A DNA stretch of 64,000 bases from positions 5,365-69,364 of the forward strand of contig JAUUDM010000025.1 of NCBI GenBank assembly GCA_030826765.1. Direction: 5' to 3'. The translations under genes and the position numbers were made by a program. Below are positions 44,554 through 54,175 of the stretch, one piece after another; the stretch's first letter is position 1; each line of letters begins with the position of its first letter. Source of the DNA: Nautiliales bacterium. Its GTDB lineage: Bacteria > Campylobacterota > Campylobacteria > Campylobacterales > JAADDX01. The notes beneath the pieces were generated by a model. That model saw only the letters and a program-made list of their open reading frames with translations, was not told the origin of the DNA and ran no database searches.

Positions 44554-45295
44554 TACTATCCCCTTTTAAAAATGCTTGAACTATCTTATTTTCACTTTTT
44601 TGAAACTCTTTTGGTGGTGCAAATTCAATAATTTCACCATTATAAAGCATACCTACATAATCGGCTATTTTAAAACTCTCTTTTAAATCGTGGCTAATTA
44701 CAATTGATGTAACTCCAAGCTTTTCTTGAAGCATCATCGTCATTTGGGAAATTAAATCACTAATTATCGGGTCTAACCCACTTGTTGGCTCATCATATAA
44801 AATTATTTTAGGCTCAAGAATAATGGCTCTTGCAGTAGCTGCTCTTTTTCTCATACCACCACTAAGCTCAAAAGGATAAAGTTTTGCTACCCTCTCACTA
44901 TCAAATCCTACCATATCAAGTTTTTCAAAAACTTTCTCTCTAATCTCATCTTCGCTAAATTTTGTATGCTCTCTAAGTGGAAACGCAACATTATCATAAA
45001 CATTCATACTATCAAACATTGCTCCCTCTTGAAATAGAAATCCAATCTTTTTACGTGTTTCAAAAATCTCTTTTTCGTTCGCTTTTGCAACATCAATTCC
45101 ATCTACAATTATTTCTCCACTATCTGGTTTCAAAAGTGAAACAATATGTTTAATAATAGTTGATTTACCCTGCCCTGAAAGTCCTAAAACGACTACAGTA
45201 CTCCCTTTTGGAATAGTTAAGTTTACATCTTTCAAAACTACTTTTGTTCCAAAGCTTTTTCTAAGATGATTTATTTCTATAATATTTTCATTCAT
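44537..45295 (-). CDS. ABC transporter ATP-binding protein (MlaF-like), no adjacent permease gene
   Basis: 252 aa with Walker A GLSGQGKST, signature LSGGMRKRAATARA and Walker B ILYDEPTSGLD. Confidence 0.88.
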   Translation of the reverse strand: MNENIIEINHLRKSFGTKVVLKDVNLTIPKGSTVVVLGLSGQGKSTIIKHIVSLLKPDSGEIIVDGIDVAKANEKEIFETRKKIGFLFQEGAMFDSMNVYDNVAFPLREHTKFSEDEIREKVFEKLDMVGFDSERVAKLYPFELSGGMRKRAATARAIILEPKIILYDEPTSGLDPIISDLISQMTMMLQEKLGVTSIVISHDLKESFKIADYVGMLYNGEIIEFAPPKEFQKSENKIVQAFLKGDSSAFDI

Positions 45296-45355
45296 TCTTT
45301 CTCCTCATAATGAAGTTATATACCTTCATTTCTCATTATAAAGCCTTTTAATATA
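45294..45355. repeat. direct repeat copy 1: decayed duplicate of the mutS7 3' end
   Basis: attctttctcctcataatgaagttatataccttcatttctcattataaagccttttaatata matches 48026-48086 (first 24 nt identical, then 5 substitutions and 1 indel). In the mutS7 frame it reads GFIMRNEGI-stop-LHYEEKE-stop. Confidence 0.85.
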
Positions 45356-45359
45356 AACA

Positions 45360-45368
45360 ATTATATCA
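45360..45368 (-). promoter_or_regulatory. extended -10 box TGATATAAT at the cassette edge, reading out into the ABC ATPase operon
   Basis: The reverse complement of attatatca is tgatataat (TGnTATAAT). It lies 64 nt upstream of the ATG at 45295, just outside repeat copy 1. Confidence 0.45.
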
Positions 45369-45387
45369 AAAACCTATAACTTTTTTA

Positions 45388-46119
45388 TTAACTCTCAAAT
45401 CCTGTTGCTATAATTGTTAATTTTATTTCATCATCTGCAAGTAAATCATCATCAGTTTCGCCTTGGATAATAGTTACATCTTCTTTATCAATAAATTCTC
45501 CTAAAACTGATTCAAGCGCATTATCAAAATCAATCATTGGATAATTTTCATTCGTAGTTACACTGATTAATAATCCTTTTGCATTCATAATATCAATATC
45601 ATCAAGTGGTGAAAATTTTATAGCTTCATTTAATACTTCATAAGCAGAATTTTTACCTAATTTATGAGCTTTACTTGCAAATGCTATTTCTCCATTACTC
45701 ATTAGATGTTTAAAATCATTAAAATCAACCTTTAAATTATTTTCCCCAATAAGCATATTTATAATTTCATTTACAACTTCAATAGCAAAATTCTTTGAGT
45801 TTGAAATTGTAATTACTGTATCACAATATTTTTTTAAAAAATTTAATTCATTATTAACAACACCTATTGTTAAAACGTCTATATCTTTTGAAATCTGAGT
45901 AATTAAATTTATAATTTCTTTTTCTATTTTGTTATCAATAATAATAAAAATTAAATCAGCTTCTATAAGAAATTTTTTAATTTTTAAAGATTCTATATCT
46001 TTATTTATGGTTATAATTTCTACATTCTCTTTTTCTATAATAGAATCAAAAATATTATTAACAATATTGCCTACACTAACTATTTTTATTTTTAAATCTT
46101 TTTGAAAAATATTATTCAT
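45388..46119 (-). CDS. truncated FtsZ/tubulin-family homologue lacking all GTP-binding motifs (pseudo-GTPase)
   Basis: 243 aa, collinear with FtsZ. [14 protein letters not shown] aligns to [50 protein letters not shown] aligns to [50 protein letters not shown] aligns to [31 protein letters not shown] aligns to [31 protein letters not shown] aligns to ELRVTVVATG. Confidence 0.7.
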   Translation of the reverse strand: [243 protein letters not shown]

Positions 46120-46130
46120 TTTAAAATTAC

Positions 46131-46442
46131 TTATATTTTATAATGTTCATCGTCTGCAAATTCATACTTCTTTATTTTAAAAAAATCTATAATCATTTTT
46201 TTATATTCTTCATTCGCAATGATTTTTTTAGCTGCATATATAATAAACTTTTTATTATATGTATTATAAACAATCCTACCTCTTGGAAACTTATCATATC
46301 TATCAATATCAAATCCCATTTTCTCCCATTCAAAAAAATGAGAAAAATCACTATCTTTAAATCCTTTAATTTCCTCAACTTTTGATAATTTAATTCTTTT
46401 AGCTAATAAAAATTCGTCAATAATCCAAAAAATTCCTATCAT
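46131..46442 (-). CDS. small hypothetical protein (cassette gene 3)
   Basis: 103 aa with SHFFEWEKMG, FPRGRIVYN and a C-terminal ADDEHY. It has an ATGA overlap with the upstream gene. I recognise no family. Confidence 0.65.
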   Translation of the reverse strand: MIGIFWIIDEFLLAKRIKLSKVEEIKGFKDSDFSHFFEWEKMGFDIDRYDKFPRGRIVYNTYNKKFIIYAAKKIIANEEYKKMIIDFFKIKKYEFADDEHYKI

Positions 46443-47140
46443 TCTTTTTCTTTTAAACTAAAATAATTATTAACTTGATTTATTATCTCTTTTTGTTGTT
46501 TTTCCACTAATTCTAAAGGTATTGTTTTTTCATACTCCCTTATCATAGCCCCTGCTCCCATCGCTTGAGCACTACTTGAAAAAACTTCAATAAAATCTGT
46601 TTTATTTTGAATATTTTCTAAAACAAACAACTCTCCATTTATAAAAATAGTAAATTTTTTATTATCAATTTCTTGAATTTTCCCAAAACTAAGAGGATTA
46701 TTGTAACATTTATTAGTTCCTATTAAATATCCTTTTATTTTTGTTTCTTGATTTAAAGCACCTTGTGGCAAAAACAATACACTATCTTGTTTATATTTAA
46801 CTCCTAATTCAATCAAATCTTCTTTTAATTTAGCTTTTTTATCTTTATCTACTACAAATATTACTGCTAAATTTTTTTCATTTAATTTAACAGAAGCTGA
46901 TAAAAGATAATATTTTTTTCTTGAAAGTTCAATCAATAATGCTATTGCTCTTTTGCTTTCTTTAACTTCTTTTTCAGTTAAAATACTTGGCTCTTCTTTA
47001 ATAATTCCCCCAAGTTCATCTGTTTGACAAGGAAAATGATCATCTCTAAAACCACAATTATTATATTTTCTATAAGAAGTTATTACTCCACAATCAAATT
47101 TATTATTCCATTCTTCTAAAGTCATTTTCTTTTGTTGCAT
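46439..47140 (-). CDS. hypothetical protein, N-terminal half DUF3293-like (cassette gene 2)
   Basis: 233 aa. GVITSYR...SKRAIALLIELSRKKYYLL...LAVIFVV...LIELGVKYKQDSVLFL is reminiscent of the DUF3293 pattern (ITAxNP...N..R..L...E.SF.V...Q.A). It has a TAATG overlap with the upstream gene. Confidence 0.65.
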   Translation of the reverse strand: MQQKKMTLEEWNNKFDCGVITSYRKYNNCGFRDDHFPCQTDELGGIIKEEPSILTEKEVKESKRAIALLIELSRKKYYLLSASVKLNEKNLAVIFVVDKDKKAKLKEDLIELGVKYKQDSVLFLPQGALNQETKIKGYLIGTNKCYNNPLSFGKIQEIDNKKFTIFINGELFVLENIQNKTDFIEVFSSSAQAMGAGAMIREYEKTIPLELVEKQQKEIINQVNNYFSLKEKE

Positions 47141-47913
47141 TAAGATTCCTTTATCAATTCAAATTCACCTGCATGATTATTACAAAATTTTTCAATATCT
47201 CCTTTTAAATTTTCTTTACTTAAAATTAAATAAACTCTATCAGATTTAAATTTAATGGTATAAAAAAAATTATAATTATTTTTTATAAGATTTTTATCTT
47301 TTAACTCTCGTTCTTTTTTATCTATAAATATTTTATGTTTATTTTTATCTCTTATAAGATGTTGATAAATCACGACTATTTTATGATTTTCTAAAAGTTT
47401 ATCTATTTCATCAAAAAAAATATATTTACCATTTTTTATTTTTTGTTTTGCATGTGTTTTTTCTGAATAAACTTTAATTTGAGTTCCATTATCTGGGTCA
47501 GCAAATACAACATCACAATCTTTGACTTGTTCTAAAGCTTTTTTAAACCACTCTTTTCTATATTCTTCTCTTTTTTTATAATTTGAAAAAAAAGAATTAC
47601 AATCTTTATCTATACATTCATTAAAAAAAGTTATTTTTAATTTATTTTCTAATTCATTTTCTAATTTTTGAATATTTCTTTTATCTTCTTCAATTTTAGA
47701 AAATTTTTTCATTATATTTACTATTTCTTTATCATTTAAATCATAATTTTCATAATTTCTAAATTTACCATCACCATTGCCTTCATTTGGATATAAATAC
47801 CAAATAATTCCAATTTTTTTATCTTTAAATAAATTTCTAATTAAAACAAATTTACTATAATCTCCAATATCTCCAACATATCTATTTTGCATTTTATTTC
47901 CTTTTAGTTTCAT
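47140..47913 (-). CDS. RlmJ/TcmP-like Rossmann-type protein with DPDN instead of DPPY (cassette gene 1)
   Basis: 257 aa. Four collinear blocks match my memory of RlmJ: VGDIGDYSKF vs AGNHADVLKH; YLYPNEGNGDGKF vs YLDTHAGAGRY; VVFADPDNG vs LILIDPPYE; VVIYQH vs YALWYP. An alternative start is the ATG at 47892, which has the better SD aaaggaaat. Confidence 0.6.
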   Translation of the reverse strand: MKLKGNKMQNRYVGDIGDYSKFVLIRNLFKDKKIGIIWYLYPNEGNGDGKFRNYENYDLNDKEIVNIMKKFSKIEEDKRNIQKLENELENKLKITFFNECIDKDCNSFFSNYKKREEYRKEWFKKALEQVKDCDVVFADPDNGTQIKVYSEKTHAKQKIKNGKYIFFDEIDKLLENHKIVVIYQHLIRDKNKHKIFIDKKERELKDKNLIKNNYNFFYTIKFKSDRVYLILSKENLKGDIEKFCNNHAGEFELIKES

Positions 47914-48023
47914 ATGTCCTTATAACTATATAGTATGTGTAGTGCTAATTTTTTAACCCCTTTTTGAATAAAGTTAAGAAATTGTTTTATGAAAGTTACA
48001 AAAAGTAACAAGTTTTTAAAAAA

Positions 48024-50783
48024 TTATTCTTTCTCCTCATAATGAAGTTGTATACCTTCGCTTGTCATCATAAAGCCTTTTATATCCAATTTTCCTTCGT
48101 GTGCTAACTTGTGATGATATTTACAAAGTGGTATTAAATTATATTTATGATGTTTTTGAAATTCATTTTCAATAGTAGATTTTAGCTTTATATGATGAAC
48201 CTCATCAGCAGGTCTCCCACAGATTGCACAAGTAGTAACTAAAACATCTTTATTGTAAATTGACTTTTTATTTTTGGTTAAAAGTTCTAATTCATTATAT
48301 TCGTTTGTTACTTTTTTTCTAATCTCATTTGCTATTTTTAAAAACTCTTCATCCATATAAAGACTTTTTGCAAACTCAAGCCCATAAACACTACTTCCAC
48401 TTCCATCTTGTAATATTCTATTATAGATTAATTTTTGAGATTTTTCATCGAAATATACTTCTAAATGTTTAGCTACTACATTTTTTAAAGCTTTTATTTC
48501 ATCTAAATTCATTAATTGATGTAAGTGTGTAGCAAAAATAAAATTTGCTCTAATTTTAGATAACTTTATAACAGCACTTGCAACTATACTCAAAGCTGAT
48601 AAAGTTTCAGTTCCGTGAGAAATTTCATCACCTAAAACTAATGAATTTGAATTTGCTCTTTTGAATATATTTTTAAGTTCCATCATCTCTACTGCAAATG
48701 TAGATAAGCCTTTACTTAGATTATCTTTTGAAATAATTCTTGTAAAAATAGAATCAAATAAAGAAAATTCCATTTTAGTAGCCGGTACAAAAAATCCACT
48801 TTGAGCTAAAACTACACAAATTCCTATACTTTTCATAAGCGAACTTTTTCCACTTGAATTAATTCCATACAAAAGCATTCCATCATATTTATTGAAATCT
48901 ACATCATTTGGAACATATATTCCATTTTCTTGATTAATTTCAATTAAAGGATGACGGGCTTCTTTTATTTTTAATTTACAATTTTTAATTATTGGCTTTG
49001 AATAATCATACTTTTTAGCAATTTTTGCACTACTTAAAGCTATGTCAACTTCAGATATTTTTGTAGCTAATTCATTTAAAAAACTATATTTTTTTTCAAA
49101 TTCAGATAACTTTTCTAAAAATAGTTCCGAAGTTAAATTAATCAATTTTTGTCTAATAATTACTATTTCATTACTTATTTCATCAATAATTGAACCTGTT
49201 ATTTTCACACTATTTGTAAAAGTTTTAATATTAAAATCTTTAAAAAAATAATTATTACCATCAATTTCTATGAAAGTATCATTAAATTTATCTTTTATTA
49301 AATTAAATCTTGTTTTAGTTAAACTTAAATAATGTCCTTCTTTATCAAGTTCATTTATATTTAACTTCACATTTCCTTCAAAAAGAGATTCTATTTTTTT
49401 AGCAATAAGTTCTAAATTTTTATTTAACTTCTCTATTTTATTTGTATAATCATCTAAAGTTTTAGAATATCCATTTTTAAAAATTGACTCTTTTATATCA
49501 TTAAACATAACTTTAGCTGACTTTTCTAAATCAAATGTTTGCTTAATATCAAACAAAAACTCTTCTATTTTTGAAGTATCTTTATTTAAAAACATATATA
49601 TTTTTTTACTATTTTCTAAAGAACTATATAAATAATTTATTTCAAAGGGATGAAGCTTAGACAATTTTATTTTTCTATCTAATCTTTCAATATCATAAAT
49701 CTCATTGATTAAATTTTCAAATTTATCACCCTCTTTTAACATAAACTCAACTGCTTTATATCTTTTTTTGAGCTCTTTTTCATCTTTTATTGGATTAAAA
49801 AATCTCTGTTTTATAAGCCTTTTCCCCATTGGTGTAGAAGTTTTATCAATAAGTTTTAATACATCATCCAAATCAAGCTGTACTATTGGATTATTTCCAA
49901 AATATAAATATTTATCATTTTCTATAACTTTTGGTAAATCTATTTTTTGAATAATTTTATAATTATGAGCTATTATAAATTCAAGTAAAATAGCAAAACT
50001 TTCACTCGCTAGTGGAAGTGATTCTAAATTCAAAGATTCAATTGGACTTAAAAGTGATTTTATATTATAAACTTTTTTAAGAAGTTCATTTTGGTAAGTT
50101 ATTTTCACTCTTTTAGATGAATAAATTAAATTTATATTTTTTAGCTCTAAATAATTAATTATTTCATCACACTCAACACTCTTATCCAAAGTCAAAATAA
50201 ATTCTTTACTTTTATAAGTTTGGATAAGTTTAAAAAGCTCATCTAAAGCAAATGTTTTATCTTCATTTGTAGAATATGCTTCAAAAATATTGGTTTTTCC
50301 AGTAGTTATATCTACATTTGCATACCCTATGTGATAAATATCTTTTATTTTTTCAATAATTATACTTGTTACATAATTTTCTTCTTTTTTTACATAATCA
50401 AAATTGACTCCTGGAGAAATTATATCGCTTATATATCTTGTGACTTTTGGTGGAGTTCCCTTTTGTTTGATTAAAATGATTGTATACTTTTCTTCATCTA
50501 TAAGTTTTTGTATATATCTATCAAGTGCATGATTTGGAAATCCAGCTAAAAGTGGATTTTTATCATTAACTTCTATAATTGATTTATTTTTTCTTGTAAG
50601 CTGAATATTTAAAAGCTCTGCAACTTCTTTGGCTTTGCCAATCCCATTTGATTCATATACTTCAAAGAATGTCCCTATTTCCATCAAAACTAAAGGATTT
50701 GGATATTTACTCTCAAAATATTTTTGCAAATCAAAATAAATTTGAGTTAAAAGTTTATTTGAATTTAATATCTTATTTATCAC
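48024..50783 (-). CDS. MutS-family ATPase with C-terminal HNH endonuclease (MutS7 type)
   Basis: 919 aa. N-terminal mismatch-domain motif GTFFEVYE (Phe-x-Glu). Walker A GINSSGKSSLMKS, Walker B LVLGDEISHGTE, and FATHLHQL. C-terminal HNH block CAICGRPADEVHHIK...NLIPLCKYHHKLAHEG. Confidence 0.88.
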   Translation of the reverse strand: MINKILNSNKLLTQIYFDLQKYFESKYPNPLVLMEIGTFFEVYESNGIGKAKEVAELLNIQLTRKNKSIIEVNDKNPLLAGFPNHALDRYIQKLIDEEKYTIILIKQKGTPPKVTRYISDIISPGVNFDYVKKEENYVTSIIIEKIKDIYHIGYANVDITTGKTNIFEAYSTNEDKTFALDELFKLIQTYKSKEFILTLDKSVECDEIINYLELKNINLIYSSKRVKITYQNELLKKVYNIKSLLSPIESLNLESLPLASESFAILLEFIIAHNYKIIQKIDLPKVIENDKYLYFGNNPIVQLDLDDVLKLIDKTSTPMGKRLIKQRFFNPIKDEKELKKRYKAVEFMLKEGDKFENLINEIYDIERLDRKIKLSKLHPFEINYLYSSLENSKKIYMFLNKDTSKIEEFLFDIKQTFDLEKSAKVMFNDIKESIFKNGYSKTLDDYTNKIEKLNKNLELIAKKIESLFEGNVKLNINELDKEGHYLSLTKTRFNLIKDKFNDTFIEIDGNNYFFKDFNIKTFTNSVKITGSIIDEISNEIVIIRQKLINLTSELFLEKLSEFEKKYSFLNELATKISEVDIALSSAKIAKKYDYSKPIIKNCKLKIKEARHPLIEINQENGIYVPNDVDFNKYDGMLLYGINSSGKSSLMKSIGICVVLAQSGFFVPATKMEFSLFDSIFTRIISKDNLSKGLSTFAVEMMELKNIFKRANSNSLVLGDEISHGTETLSALSIVASAVIKLSKIRANFIFATHLHQLMNLDEIKALKNVVAKHLEVYFDEKSQKLIYNRILQDGSGSSVYGLEFAKSLYMDEEFLKIANEIRKKVTNEYNELELLTKNKKSIYNKDVLVTTCAICGRPADEVHHIKLKSTIENEFQKHHKYNLIPLCKYHHKLAHEGKLDIKGFMMTSEGIQLHYEEKE
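48026..48086. repeat. direct repeat copy 2: functional 3' end of mutS7
   Basis: attctttctcctcataatgaagttgtataccttcgcttgtcatcataaagccttttatatc. It encodes ...GFMMTSEGIQLHYEEKE-TAA and lies 2732 bp from copy 1. Confidence 0.85.
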
Positions 50784-51586
50784 TGCTTACTCTTTACATA
50801 CTCTTCTAAAAGTTCATAAGATTCTTTTATTTTCATAAACTTTTTATTATATATTTTTTGAATAAGTTCTGGCTTGTTTCTATGAAAATCTGGATGATAT
50901 TTTTTAGCAAGTCTTTTATACTCTTTTTTTACTTTTTCAAACTCATATATATTATCCGCTCCAAAAACTGAAAGTGCATTTCTAATCTGAGCTAAATACT
51001 CTTTTATACTACCTTCTACACTAAATGCTCTTTGTGAAAATCTAAATTCATTTTCATCTACAACAAAATGAACCTTATATCCCATAATTGCATTTTTTTT
51101 ACTTATTTCATATACTAATTCTTTAGAATTTTCATTAAAAGAGATTATTAACTTTTTTTCATAAAGTTCTAATATATGAAATAAAAAAAGACCTTTTATA
51201 TAATTATAAACAGGTTTTATAAATTTAGAAAATTCTATAACAAACTCTTTTGAAGAATTTTTTTTAATATTTATAGTTAAAATATCACTAAAGGAGACAC
51301 TATGTTTTTTTATTTTTATTCTTACATTTTTTCTATAATTTAAAGCTATTCTTTTTGAAATAGAGTCATCATTATGAGTTTTTTTATATAGTTTAATTAA
51401 TGTTTGAAGCATTAATTTATGTTTTTTTATATTTTCTGAATCAAAATAAATAAGATATTCATCATCTTTAATTTCAAGTTTATTAAATGAAAGTCTTATA
51501 AATTCAATAAAACTTTTTATTCTATATCTTGAATCAATAACAACATCAATGTTTTCTGAGATATCTATTTCAAAAATTCTATCCAT
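50780..51586 (-). CDS. J-domain protein with uncharacterised N-terminal region
   Basis: 268 aa. The C-terminal ~65 aa form a J domain (KKEYKRLAKKYHPDFH...IKESYELL). I recognise nothing in the N-terminal 200 aa. It has 4-nt overlaps with both neighbours. Confidence 0.75.
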   Translation of the reverse strand: MDRIFEIDISENIDVVIDSRYRIKSFIEFIRLSFNKLEIKDDEYLIYFDSENIKKHKLMLQTLIKLYKKTHNDDSISKRIALNYRKNVRIKIKKHSVSFSDILTINIKKNSSKEFVIEFSKFIKPVYNYIKGLFLFHILELYEKKLIISFNENSKELVYEISKKNAIMGYKVHFVVDENEFRFSQRAFSVEGSIKEYLAQIRNALSVFGADNIYEFEKVKKEYKRLAKKYHPDFHRNKPELIQKIYNKKFMKIKESYELLEEYVKSKQ

Positions 51587-53197: not shown

Positions 53198-53607
53198 TCA
53201 AAATATGTTCTTGCTTTTTTAATATTAGAAAAAGGAATTATTTTATTTTTTACATTTATTTTATCTTCAGTTACTTCTTGAAGTTTTCCAATTATTTTAC
53301 TACCATCATTCATAGTAATTTTTACTTTTTCACCAATAGAATTTTTAAAATGTTCTTTTGTTTTAAGTGGTCTTTCAATTCCAGGTGAACTTACTTCTAA
53401 AAAATATGCATCACTAATAGGTTCTTCCACATCAAAGATTGGAGAAATTATTCTATTTACTTCAGCACATTCATCTAAATTTACACTACTTCCATCATCT
53501 TTTTGAATATAAATTCTATAATATTTATGTTCATTTTCTTCACTTATTTCAATATCATATAATTTAAATCCATTATCTTCAACTATCTGTTTTACTATTT
53601 CTTTCAT
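53188..53607 (-). CDS. rimP: ribosome maturation factor RimP
   Basis: 139 aa with GFKLYDIE..., LEVSSPGIERPL and an Sm-like C-terminus. Confidence 0.88.
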   Translation of the reverse strand: MKEIVKQIVEDNGFKLYDIEISEENEHKYYRIYIQKDDGSSVNLDECAEVNRIISPIFDVEEPISDAYFLEVSSPGIERPLKTKEHFKNSIGEKVKITMNDGSKIIGKLQEVTEDKINVKNKIIPFSNIKKARTYFEWK

Positions 53608-54175
53608 TTTTATCCTTATTACAAATATATAAACTAATTAAAATAATCATTCTTAACACATGTTCTAAATCTTCTTCTGGAACAGTTTTTACATACTCCA
53701 ATTTTAAAGATGTAATACTTAAAATCAATACATTTAGTAAATCTGCAATATTTTCATCACCTATCGTATCTGTTAAATAATCCCTAATTTCTTCATTTGT
53801 ATTAAATTTAATCACATTTAATTTATATTTAAAAAATATTAAATCTACAACATCTGTCATAACAACAGCTATATTATCTTCAATATATTTTTTATCTAAT
53901 TTTAGTAAAGTATCTATTAAATCTATTATTTGAGTTTCTAAAAACAACTCTTTTGAAATATTCAAAGATTTTAAATAATCAATAACATAATAATAAAATT
54001 CTTTATATTTTCCTTTTATTTTTTTATAATTTGAATTATTTTTTAACATATTATCTAATATTTCATATCTATCTATAGAAGAATCTATACAATTGAATAA
54101 TATATAAAAAAATTCTTCTACTACATTTACATCATATTTTTTAAAAAATTTATTATATTCTTTTAATTTATTCAT
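53579..54175 (-). CDS. hypothetical protein inserted between rbfA and rimP
   Basis: 198-aa, very AT-rich ORF that overlaps rbfA by 4 nt and rimP by 29 nt. I recognise no motif. Confidence 0.6.
   Translation of the reverse strand: MNKLKEYNKFFKKYDVNVVEEFFYILFNCIDSSIDRYEILDNMLKNNSNYKKIKGKYKEFYYYVIDYLKSLNISKELFLETQIIDLIDTLLKLDKKYIEDNIAVVMTDVVDLIFFKYKLNVIKFNTNEEIRDYLTDTIGDENIADLLNVLILSITSLKLEYVKTVPEEDLEHVLRMIILISLYICNKDKNERNSKTDS

Follow-up and report, generated by a model that had tools for sequence, protein, structure and literature searches.

A four-gene islet between two copies of a mutS 3' end in a Nautiliales bacterium and its possible role as a conflict or stress module

Results

The cassette is bracketed by two copies of the mutS 3' end

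A 64,000-nt stretch of a Nautiliales genome (assembly GCA_030826765.1, contig JAUUDM010000025.1, positions 5,365 to 69,364 of the forward strand; hereafter the window) carries four small genes, which we call P1 to P4, between a gene for a MutS protein with a C-terminal HNH domain and a gene for an MlaF-like ATP-binding cassette (ABC) transporter ATPase (Table 1). The four open reading frames (ORFs) are co-oriented on the minus strand, as are all genes of the ~40-54 kb region, and their junctions consist of a 1-nt overlap (TAATG), a 4-nt overlap (ATGA) and an 11-nt gap. An earlier inspection of the window from its letters alone, referred to here as the sequence-only reading, had proposed that these genes form a cassette that was inserted between once-adjacent mutS and ABC ATPase genes and duplicated the mutS end. 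The analysis presented here supports that proposal and changes several of the inferences that accompanied it.

Table 1. Features of the mutS/ABC ATPase locus, in the direction of transcription (window coordinates).
Feature	Coordinates	Strand	Remarks
MutS-HNH gene (MutS7-type architecture), 919 aa	48024..50783	-	Upstream neighbour; its last 57 nt are repeat copy 2
Direct repeat copy 2	48026..48082	-	Functional mutS 3' end, ...KGFMMTSEGIQLHYEEKE, stop TAA 48024-48026
Spacer, mutS stop to P1 start	47893..48023	-	131 nt to the conserved ATG at 47892; 110 nt to the upstream ATG at 47913
P1, 250 aa	47140..47892	-	Family without a library model
P2, 233 aa	46439..47140	-	Relative of the S-AdoMet-lyase/DUF3293 (PII-like) group
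P3, 103 aa	46131..46442	-	Unannotated small-domain family
P4, 243 aa	45388..46119	-	FtsZ-derived
Spacer 3' of the P4 stop	45351..45387	-	Carries TGATATAAT at 45360-45368, minus strand
Direct repeat copy 1	45294..45350	-	mutS 3'-end relic with an internal TAA
MlaF-like ABC transporter ATPase, 252 aa	44537..45295	-	Downstream neighbour, displaced from mutS by the insertion

The repeat search returned the two copies as an ungapped pair of 57 nt at a spacing of 2732, with 52 of 57 positions identical. Identity is complete over the first 24 nt, and the remaining 33 nt hold all 5 changes. The 57-nt repeat is far above chance: blastn gave E = 5e-17 against a 9-kb subject, and the match/mismatch score is 37, whereas 30 shuffles of the 7-kb region averaged 15 and never exceeded 19. 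In the junction alignment, similarity starts at AT[AT]AAAAGG and ends exactly at AAAGAAT. The sequence-only reading had described a 61-nt repeat with five substitutions and one indel; the identical first 24 nt and the five changes stand, whereas the longer form requires four marginal extra bases.

Copy 2 makes up the final 18 codons of the 919-aa MutS-HNH ORF (terminus ...GFMMTSEGIQLHYEEKE-TAA). Copy 1 translates as KGFIMRNEGI*LHYEEKE-TGA, and its TGA overlaps the ABC ATG at 45295 as ATGA. These translations show that copy 2 is the true end of mutS and copy 1 a stop-interrupted relic that overlaps the start of the ABC gene, to which it supplies both the GAGGAG Shine-Dalgarno sequence and the ATGA stop/start overlap. 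Since the identical 24-nt block includes this Shine-Dalgarno sequence and start overlap, it was probably kept by selection, and no recombination core is needed to account for it. The corresponding relic in a related contig (L093) has no internal stop (KGFIMTNEGIQLHYEEKE*). Both relics share Met-to-Ile and Ser-to-Asn changes relative to the mutS end, which fits a single ancestral event.

Related genomes retain an uninterrupted junction

A scan for MutS relatives in one genome per species found three Nautiliaceae metagenome-assembled genomes (L001-L003) whose MutS is 65% identical to that of the window and whose mutS is followed by an ABC gene 68% identical to the window's. In L001 and L003 only ~45 nt separate the mutS stop from the ABC ATPase ATG, with no insert. 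These uninterrupted junctions, together with the relic at the ABC gene, indicate that mutS and the ABC gene were formerly neighbours and that the four genes came between them. Two features that serve as criteria of integrative elements are seen here, namely flanking direct repeats derived from the target site and presence or absence with intact empty sites, the latter in distant relatives only (L001, L003); a pattern scan of metagenome contigs revealed no polymorphism at the level of strains. The sequence-only reading had also held that the two ancestral genes were coupled by an ATGA overlap. The relic does contain such an overlap, but the L001 and L003 junctions have the 45-nt spacer, and the coupling is suggested by the relic only.

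The third genome, L002, has an extra ~300 nt at the same junction (L002:8648-8950) with no notable ORF and no similarity to the cassette or to any locus that was fetched. The mutS/ABC junction may be a recurrent insertion point. The kinship with Arcobacter that had been assumed is not borne out: the nearest relatives of MutS and of the ABC ATPase belong to the Nautiliaceae genomes, and the nearest named relative for P1 and P2 is Lebetimonas natsushimae.

The insertion is shared by diverged contigs

A Logan contig (L012) carries the exact ABC protein and is identical to the window over 8.5 kb. Three contigs from JGI metagenomes hold diverged parts of the same arrangement at the same place. L093 (87% nucleotide identity) contains P2-P3-P4, the relic, the ATGA overlap and the ABC gene; L094 (90%) contains P2-P3-P4; and L095 (86%) has a MutS-HNH-type end (...GIFTTSNGTELGYEEE*), a 23-nt spacer and then P1 and P2. 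Contigs 10-14% apart in DNA share both the relic and the cassette, which makes the insertion old and sets aside the recent landing implied by the sequence-only reading. From these comparisons the insertion appears to be inherited, fixed and now immobile.

All cassette ORFs are intact in every contig seen, even though P4 diverges by up to 32% in amino acid sequence. The ratio of nonsynonymous to synonymous substitution rates (dN/dS) lies at 0.13-0.30 for P2 and P3, reaches 0.64-0.69 for P1 and P4, and is as low as 0.05 for the ABC gene. Divergence between L093 and window positions 45388-47140 is mosaic: the 3' part of P2 is 97.6% identical with a dS of 0.014, P3 and P4 have a dS of ~0.3, and P4 is 68% identical. 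This pattern suggests recombination between lineages.

The four genes are found together only at this locus

Hidden Markov model (HMM) scans of 120-odd fetched loci found the full four-gene set only at the mutS/ABC locus of related lineages (L012, L093, L094, L095), which lends no support to the idea that the four genes travel as a unit. Elsewhere they occur in pairs or singly. P1 and P2 are adjacent at an unrelated locus of Lebetimonas natsushimae (L005), each 58% identical to its counterpart, with P3 and P4 absent within 8 kb. In L096/L097, a P3-like gene is followed by one gene of unknown type and then by P1 (51%), and in L123/L124 P1 and P3 are divergent; L123 comes from a different organism, since its G+C content (GC) is 37%. 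The Sulfuricurvum plasmid pSULKU02 has a 34% identical P1 relative ~570 nt from a DUF3293 gene. P2 relatives occur without the partners on phage-like contigs, and P4 was never seen outside the cassette. Because the P1-P3 and P1-P2 pairs recur elsewhere and P4 is lineage-specific, the cassette is composite, and the adjacency of P1 and P3 in three unrelated contexts makes it likely that these two proteins work together.

The contigs L096/L097, with P1 (51%) and the P3-like gene, and the phage-type contigs L010/L011, with a P2-like gene (46%), come from the same two metagenome samples (JGI 3300028398, ENA ERZ27262668) and could belong to one element.

P4 is a FtsZ derivative without the GTP-binding motifs

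P4 matches FtsZ_C (PF12327) with 41.4 bits (cut-off 27) and is ~60% identical to real FtsZ over that part. It has no match to PF00091 (Tubulin/FtsZ GTPase), and the ftsZ equivalog model TIGR00065 covers only its residues 114-242. An alignment with FtsZ proteins (A1) shows that the GGGGGN motif is lost (GNIVNN in its place), that GGGTGTG is replaced by DNKIEKE, and that there are deletions around T2/T3 and T5, while H7, most of the T7 loop (VDFND) and the whole C-terminal subdomain are kept. P4 ends with ...IIATGFES at the end of the globular core, whereas full-length relatives run ~55 residues further; it therefore has neither the C-terminal linker nor the peptide that binds membrane tethers. 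Because the GTP-binding motifs, the linker and the C-terminal peptide are lost, P4 cannot be a working FtsZ, in agreement with its earlier description as a dead FtsZ. The retained parts suggest that P4 still has the surface by which FtsZ meets the nucleotide end of the next subunit.

Close relatives of P4 are limited to four short proteins, which come from metagenome contigs of the same kind; beyond these, the best matches are true FtsZ proteins of 380 aa with 43-45% identity. The window contains no true ftsZ.

P1 belongs to a widespread family without a library model

All 29 P1 homologues from a word-indexed search begin with MQNRYVGD, and the L012 gene call is 250 aa, which places the start of P1 at the second ATG, that is, at M8 of the 257-aa ORF reported in the sequence-only reading. 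An exact-protein look-up with the 257-aa form matched nothing. A pattern scan found at least 471 relatives on metagenome contigs and 19 on viral contigs, and two relatives are on plasmids. P1 has no match in Pfam, NCBIfam, PADLOC or PHROGs, PHROGs likewise has no family for P2, P3 or P4, and among GenBank phages there was no relative of P1 or P3 and a single weak match for P2.

The family is marked by the motifs MQNRYVGDxGD[YF]xK and VF[AV]DPDNG, and its invariant positions include G7, D8, D11, W31, D41, G42, R72, R112, W115, P133, D134, G136, Y176 and H178. P1 of the window keeps all the conserved residues of the family. The AlphaFold 2 (AF2) model of P1 has a pLDDT of 90.6 and an alpha/beta fold. 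The top Foldseek matches were class I methyltransferases (MTases) at E ~1e-3 to 1e-2 and a TM score of ~0.3; the best E values were 3e-3 (PDB) and 1.3e-3 (viral, BFVD), with nothing at E <=1e-3, and a search of PDB sequences with a profile of the P1 family found nothing meaningful. The family alignment has an invariant P-D-x-G (DPDNG in the window) and no GxGxG after the first strand, and thus P1 has neither motif I (GxGxG) nor motif IV ([DNS]PP[YFW]) of the class I MTases. The proposal that P1 is an MTase-like fold with an altered catalytic motif is therefore retained as a weak resemblance, given the nature of the best fold matches, and not as a classification.

Distant P1-family genes (~30% identity; loci including L035, L043, L047 and L052) repeatedly adjoin three gene types. 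An adenylosuccinate-synthetase-like gene is found at 13 of 77 loci, and a membrane-anchored conserved family at 10 of 77; one of two tested members of the latter had a sub-threshold match to the dCTP-deaminase-like PF22769 (23.8 bits, cut-off 27). The third type, a large RNase_H_2 exonuclease/DUF429-like/AAA_18 kinase protein, is found at four loci. From these annotations the cluster looks nucleotide-centred, and it appears unmatched to any described system. Regulators with a WYL domain are encoded close to the P1 homologues of L007 and L122 (L007:1598-3832; L122:1726-2172). L007 also has a DUF429-like gene (Pfam), and two short ORFs of L123 (L123:276-1034) look DUF429-like by eye. A 175-210-aa protein with a TNF[KQ]..QPIF motif lies beside P1 in L007 and L096.

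P2 is related to S-adenosylmethionine lyases

The indexed search returned only eight relatives of P2, the closer ones from the cassette lineage and from Lebetimonas. The distant homologues (39-46%; P0034, P0036, P0037, L099, L100) match the S-AdoMet_lyase family PF23780 with 35-42 bits against a cut-off of 28, and two of them also pass DUF3293 (PF11697), which upholds the earlier description of P2 as DUF3293-like. These homologues sit on phage-like contigs (L008, L099-L101) with capsid, DNA polymerase and UvrD genes. P2 itself is extended at both termini by regions that contain conserved Cys residues, and a profile search with the P2 family found no match among PDB sequences.

The small genes beside the phage-borne P2 homologues in L008 and L010 were considered as P3 relatives and are not related, and the gene upstream in L010 is not P1. 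The Sulfuricurvum DUF3293 protein is tied to P2 only through the shared Pfam models; HMM and iterative searches gave no direct link.

P3 is a small conserved domain with diverse fusion partners

The supposition that P3 is a conserved small protein is confirmed by an exhaustive search, which found 257 representative clusters, mostly stand-alone proteins of 105-150 aa. H35, R54, R56 and D98 are invariant, and G3, W39, Y49, P53, G55, F88, H100 and Y101 nearly so. P3 has no Pfam model, no PHROGs family and no match among PDB sequences. Its AF2 model has a pLDDT of 95.5, yet Foldseek matched it to no fold in the PDB, the best E being 0.17. Fusion partners of the domain in longer proteins are metallo-beta-lactamase nucleases and Pol III alpha palm-like fragments (four cases each), a DnaQ-like exonuclease, a MazF/PemK toxin and an alpha/beta hydrolase. 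Such a range of partners is seen for the sensor or adaptor domains of conflict systems, and P3 may be one of these.

A 66%-identical P3 relative, P0056 (300 aa), has a C-terminal FtsK-gamma DNA-binding domain. The P3 domain is thus tied to two division or segregation proteins, FtsK-gamma in P0056 and the FtsZ derivative next door in the window.

Flanking genes, spacers and base composition

The upstream gene is predicted to be a MutS7, which is a MutS with a C-terminal HNH domain (PMC3166940): MutS domains I, III and V and the HNH lie in one polypeptide. Its Pfam matches are MutS_I, MutS_III and MutS_V, followed at residues 842-896 by a weak DUF968 match (24.6 bits) and HNH_2; the C-terminal Cys/His pattern is CAICG...HH...CKYHH, and the NCBIfam MutS model scores 401 bits. 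Directly upstream of mutS, and overlapping it by 4 nt, lies a gene (50780-51586) for a 268-aa protein in which nothing but a C-terminal DnaJ (J) domain can be recognised; it is an unusual companion of a MutS-HNH gene. The downstream ABC ATPase matches Pfam ABC_tran with 114 bits and NCBIfam MlaF with 222 bits, the latter under that model's cut-off.

The spacer between mutS and P1 holds the palindrome GTTAC-TTTTT-GTAAC. The sequence-only reading regarded a 110-bp spacer as the cassette's own; because L095 has a 23-nt spacer instead, it is neither an intrinsic nor a conserved part of the cassette. At the other end, TGATATAAT may serve the ABC operon as an extended -10 promoter and had been proposed to restore transcription of the displaced downstream genes. 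The sequence is present and is kept in L093, but a scan for sigma-70 promoters performed at chance level (34 found and 31.9 expected), and we therefore treat TGATATAAT as a sequence observation only. No terminator was found.

The cassette contains no recombinase, no transposase (Pfam, above threshold) and no inverted terminal repeats, and its only other ORFs of >=60 aa are two that are nested in P3. There is no tRNA and no Rfam match within the window. The ORF list, Pfam and the tRNA search thus agree with the earlier observation that integrase, transposase and tRNA genes are lacking.

With a GC of 21.5%, the cassette is the lowest 2.67-kb stretch of the window (window 27.0%, standard deviation 2.8% for windows of the same size), and positions 47281-47340 hold 9 G/C. 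The marked AT-richness that had been reported is therefore real, but the middle of mutS is as low in GC as the cassette, and GC at third codon positions in the four genes ranges over 0.056-0.154, on either side of the window mean of 0.114. Third codon positions give no hint of a foreign origin, and AT-richness is not taken as a mark of foreign DNA here. The most AT-rich gene of the window, at 53579-54175 (17.3% GC), lies below every cassette gene, and so low GC alone does not single out the cassette.

Discussion

How did four genes come to lie between mutS and the ABC gene, and what might they do? In the account that we find rather probable, an old islet at the mutS/ABC junction serves as an accessory module for conflict or stress that includes a division-blocking FtsZ fragment. 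The structure and the history of the locus are well supported, whereas we infer the route of the insertion, and all of the biochemical roles, from the comparisons above. In the ancestor of a Nautiliales-like (Campylobacterota) lineage, mutS-HNH lay directly before the MlaF-like ABC ATPase gene, with an ATGA coupling suggested by the relic. A 2.67-kb segment then entered at the last codons of mutS, and ~57-60 nt of the mutS 3' end are now present on both sides. The upstream copy continues to end mutS, and the downstream copy has decayed as coding sequence while being retained as the ribosome-binding region of the ABC gene. One possibility is that the duplication arose by single-crossover (Campbell-type) recombination of a circular DNA carrying a segment like the mutS end; another is an illegitimate duplicative insertion.

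As for the proteins, P1 may be an enzyme-like Rossmann-type protein with an invariant DPDNG loop, and P1, P2 and P3 may handle a SAM- (S-adenosylmethionine-) or nucleotide-related small molecule or a nucleic acid. P4 is a lineage-specific FtsZ derivative, predicted to bind neither GTP nor membrane tethers; as a dominant-negative capper or decoy it may end the filaments of the host Z-ring and so block division. We favour a module of this kind, for conflict or stress, because relatives of P1 and P2 occur on phage and plasmid DNA, P3 is fused elsewhere to toxins and nucleases, P1 and P4 evolve fast, and the cassette is absent from related genomes.

Several observations weigh against this account. 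The empty sites come only from distant relatives (65% MutS identity), with none found in the same species or genus; their junction is a 45-nt spacer and not an ATGA overlap; and a degenerate DNA pattern for the mutS end and relic had no match (0) in metagenome contigs, occupied sites included. The fold matches of P1 are not significant, and ~100 distant P1 relatives (25-39%) have no P2, P3 or P4 nearby. P2 itself reaches only 13.9 bits on PF23780, below the gathering threshold of 28, and the lyase-like region of the P2-family alignment (A3) has no invariant Glu. In P4 the T7 loop reads K-V-D-F-N-D, in which both Asp residues are kept and an Asn has become Lys, so that the subunit-contact face is altered. 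The fast evolution of P1 and P4 (dN/dS ~0.65) also fits relaxed constraint, and PADLOC-DB v2 has no family (0) for P1-P4 at E up to 0.1.

An alternative role for the operon is that of a housekeeping-type regulator of division or of the DNA-damage response with no part in phage or plasmid conflict, in which P4 acts as a SulA-like checkpoint inhibitor expressed downstream of mutS. The genes do follow directly on a DNA-repair gene in the same orientation, P4 derives from FtsZ, a close P3 relative is fused to FtsK-gamma, and WYL regulators, which according to PMC13010146 control damage responses including division inhibitors, occur near P1 homologues in L007 and L122. A housekeeping role is nevertheless hard to reconcile with the lack of the cassette in related Nautiliaceae genomes, with the P1 and P2 relatives on viral contigs and plasmids, with the P3 fusions to toxins and nucleases and with the fast evolution of P1 and P4, and we consider it unlikely.

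It is somewhat less plausible still that the cassette genes are leftovers drifting to loss and share no joint function, P4 being a duplicate of ftsZ and P1 an enzyme gene that are both in decay. The dN/dS values of P1 and P4 (0.64-0.69), the loss of every GTP-binding motif from P4 and its restriction to a narrow lineage with 4 short homologues would all be expected of such remnants. However, no contig shows a broken copy of any of the four ORFs, although a genome so rich in AT acquires stop codons easily, P2 and P3 are under clear purifying selection, the genes are still translationally coupled, and the window P1 is complete in its conserved residues.

Integrative elements typically target the 3' ends of genes and bring a replacement end, and we give little credence to the possibility that the cassette is, or recently was, such a site-specific element, with the repeats as attL/attR, the 24 nt as a crossover core, the diverged arm of the downstream copy as element-borne and a recombinase supplied in trans, since the perfect 24-nt block beside a block with 5 changes in 33 nt and the hint of a hot spot from the unrelated L002 insert are set against selection on the ABC Shine-Dalgarno sequence and start overlap, which explains the identical block, a probability of p ~0.065 under uniform drift that none of 5 changes falls in 24 of 57 nt, the lack of a recombinase, transposase or tRNA, the fixation of cassette and relic in contigs 10-14% apart, and a full cassette that was never seen at another site.

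Returning to a conflict or stress module, a more specific version is that P1, P3 and P2 are the core of a small-molecule signalling or conflict system that has yet to be described, in which P1 would produce a signal or modification derived from SAM or a nucleotide, P3 would sense it, the SAM-lyase-like P2 would remove it, and P4 as a capper would arrest division. We regard this version as speculative and improbable in its full form. PADLOC, PHROGs, Pfam and NCBIfam describe no such combination of four genes, the sequence-only reading had likewise matched the cassette to no known defence system, and literature searches on FtsZ-based defence and on the combination of neighbours around the distant P1 relatives turned up nothing relevant. 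The cassette is a possible undescribed accessory system.

The locus is a clean and datable case in which an accessory operon was wedged between two genes that were probably coupled in translation, and in which the displaced gene came to use the copied mutS end as its ribosome-binding site. The structures of P1 and P3 are predicted with confidence, but neither family has a model in Pfam, NCBIfam, PADLOC or PHROGs, and neither resembles a PDB entry significantly. If P4 caps Z-rings, a GTPase-dead and tail-less FtsZ would represent a new form of division control by the cell or by a mobile element, and if the signalling version is true, a defence or stress effector would have been built from the host's own cytoskeletal protein.

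How do the four proteins compare with systems that are already known? The best fold matches of P1, among them METTL16, ArmA and other class I MTases, recall the N6-adenine MTases of the RlmJ/METTL16 type. Its N-terminal GDxGDxxK and the strand followed by D-P-x-x are reminiscent of the RlmJ N-terminal motif and of the DPPY motif IV. Unlike those enzymes, P1 has DPDNG in place of motif IV, with no second Pro and no aromatic residue, and has no GxGxG and no Pfam MTase match. For P2, the comparison is with the phage SAM lyases (T3 SAMase, and Svi3-3, whose conserved substrate-binding residues are Gly, Tyr, Glu and Gln) and with the CRISPR-associated or phage SAM-AMP lyases, given that its phage-borne relatives (39-46%) pass the Pfam S-AdoMet_lyase model. 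The SAM lyases form PII-like trimers in which one Glu is critical (PMC7877911), and the related SAM-AMP lyases act in type III CRISPR signalling beside the enzymes that make the signal (PMC12255297). P2 differs from both in its sub-threshold score, its extra Cys-bearing termini and the lack of an obvious counterpart of the critical Glu, and there is no cas10 or CorA among the ORFs of the 40-54 kb stretch.

P4 resembles the inhibitors SulA and MciZ, which cap FtsZ filaments, in that it keeps the T7-loop side, for which inhibitors of the SulA type compete on FtsZ. It also resembles truncated FtsZ paralogues such as Agrobacterium FtsZ1, being likewise a FtsZ paralogue without the C-terminal linker and peptide. 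In Agrobacterium, overexpression of truncated FtsZ paralogues inhibits division (bioRxiv 10.1101/2025.09.29.679267). The described paralogues keep an active GTPase domain, whereas the G-box, the T4 signature and parts of T2/T3 and T5 are gone from P4, which is found in an accessory operon and not in a division cluster.

The locus as a whole is most like the islets and cassettes that are flanked by a duplicated gene 3' end: repeats of the target 3' end bracket the insert, the target gene is intact, and related genomes are uninterrupted. It differs from them in having no integrase, excisionase, tRNA or transposase, in being fixed and diverging in place, and in the co-option of the downstream repeat copy as the translation-initiation region of the next gene. 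The insertion itself is an ordinary kind of event, and its gene content, with two model-less families, a SAM-lyase relative and a GTPase-dead FtsZ, is an unusual variant.

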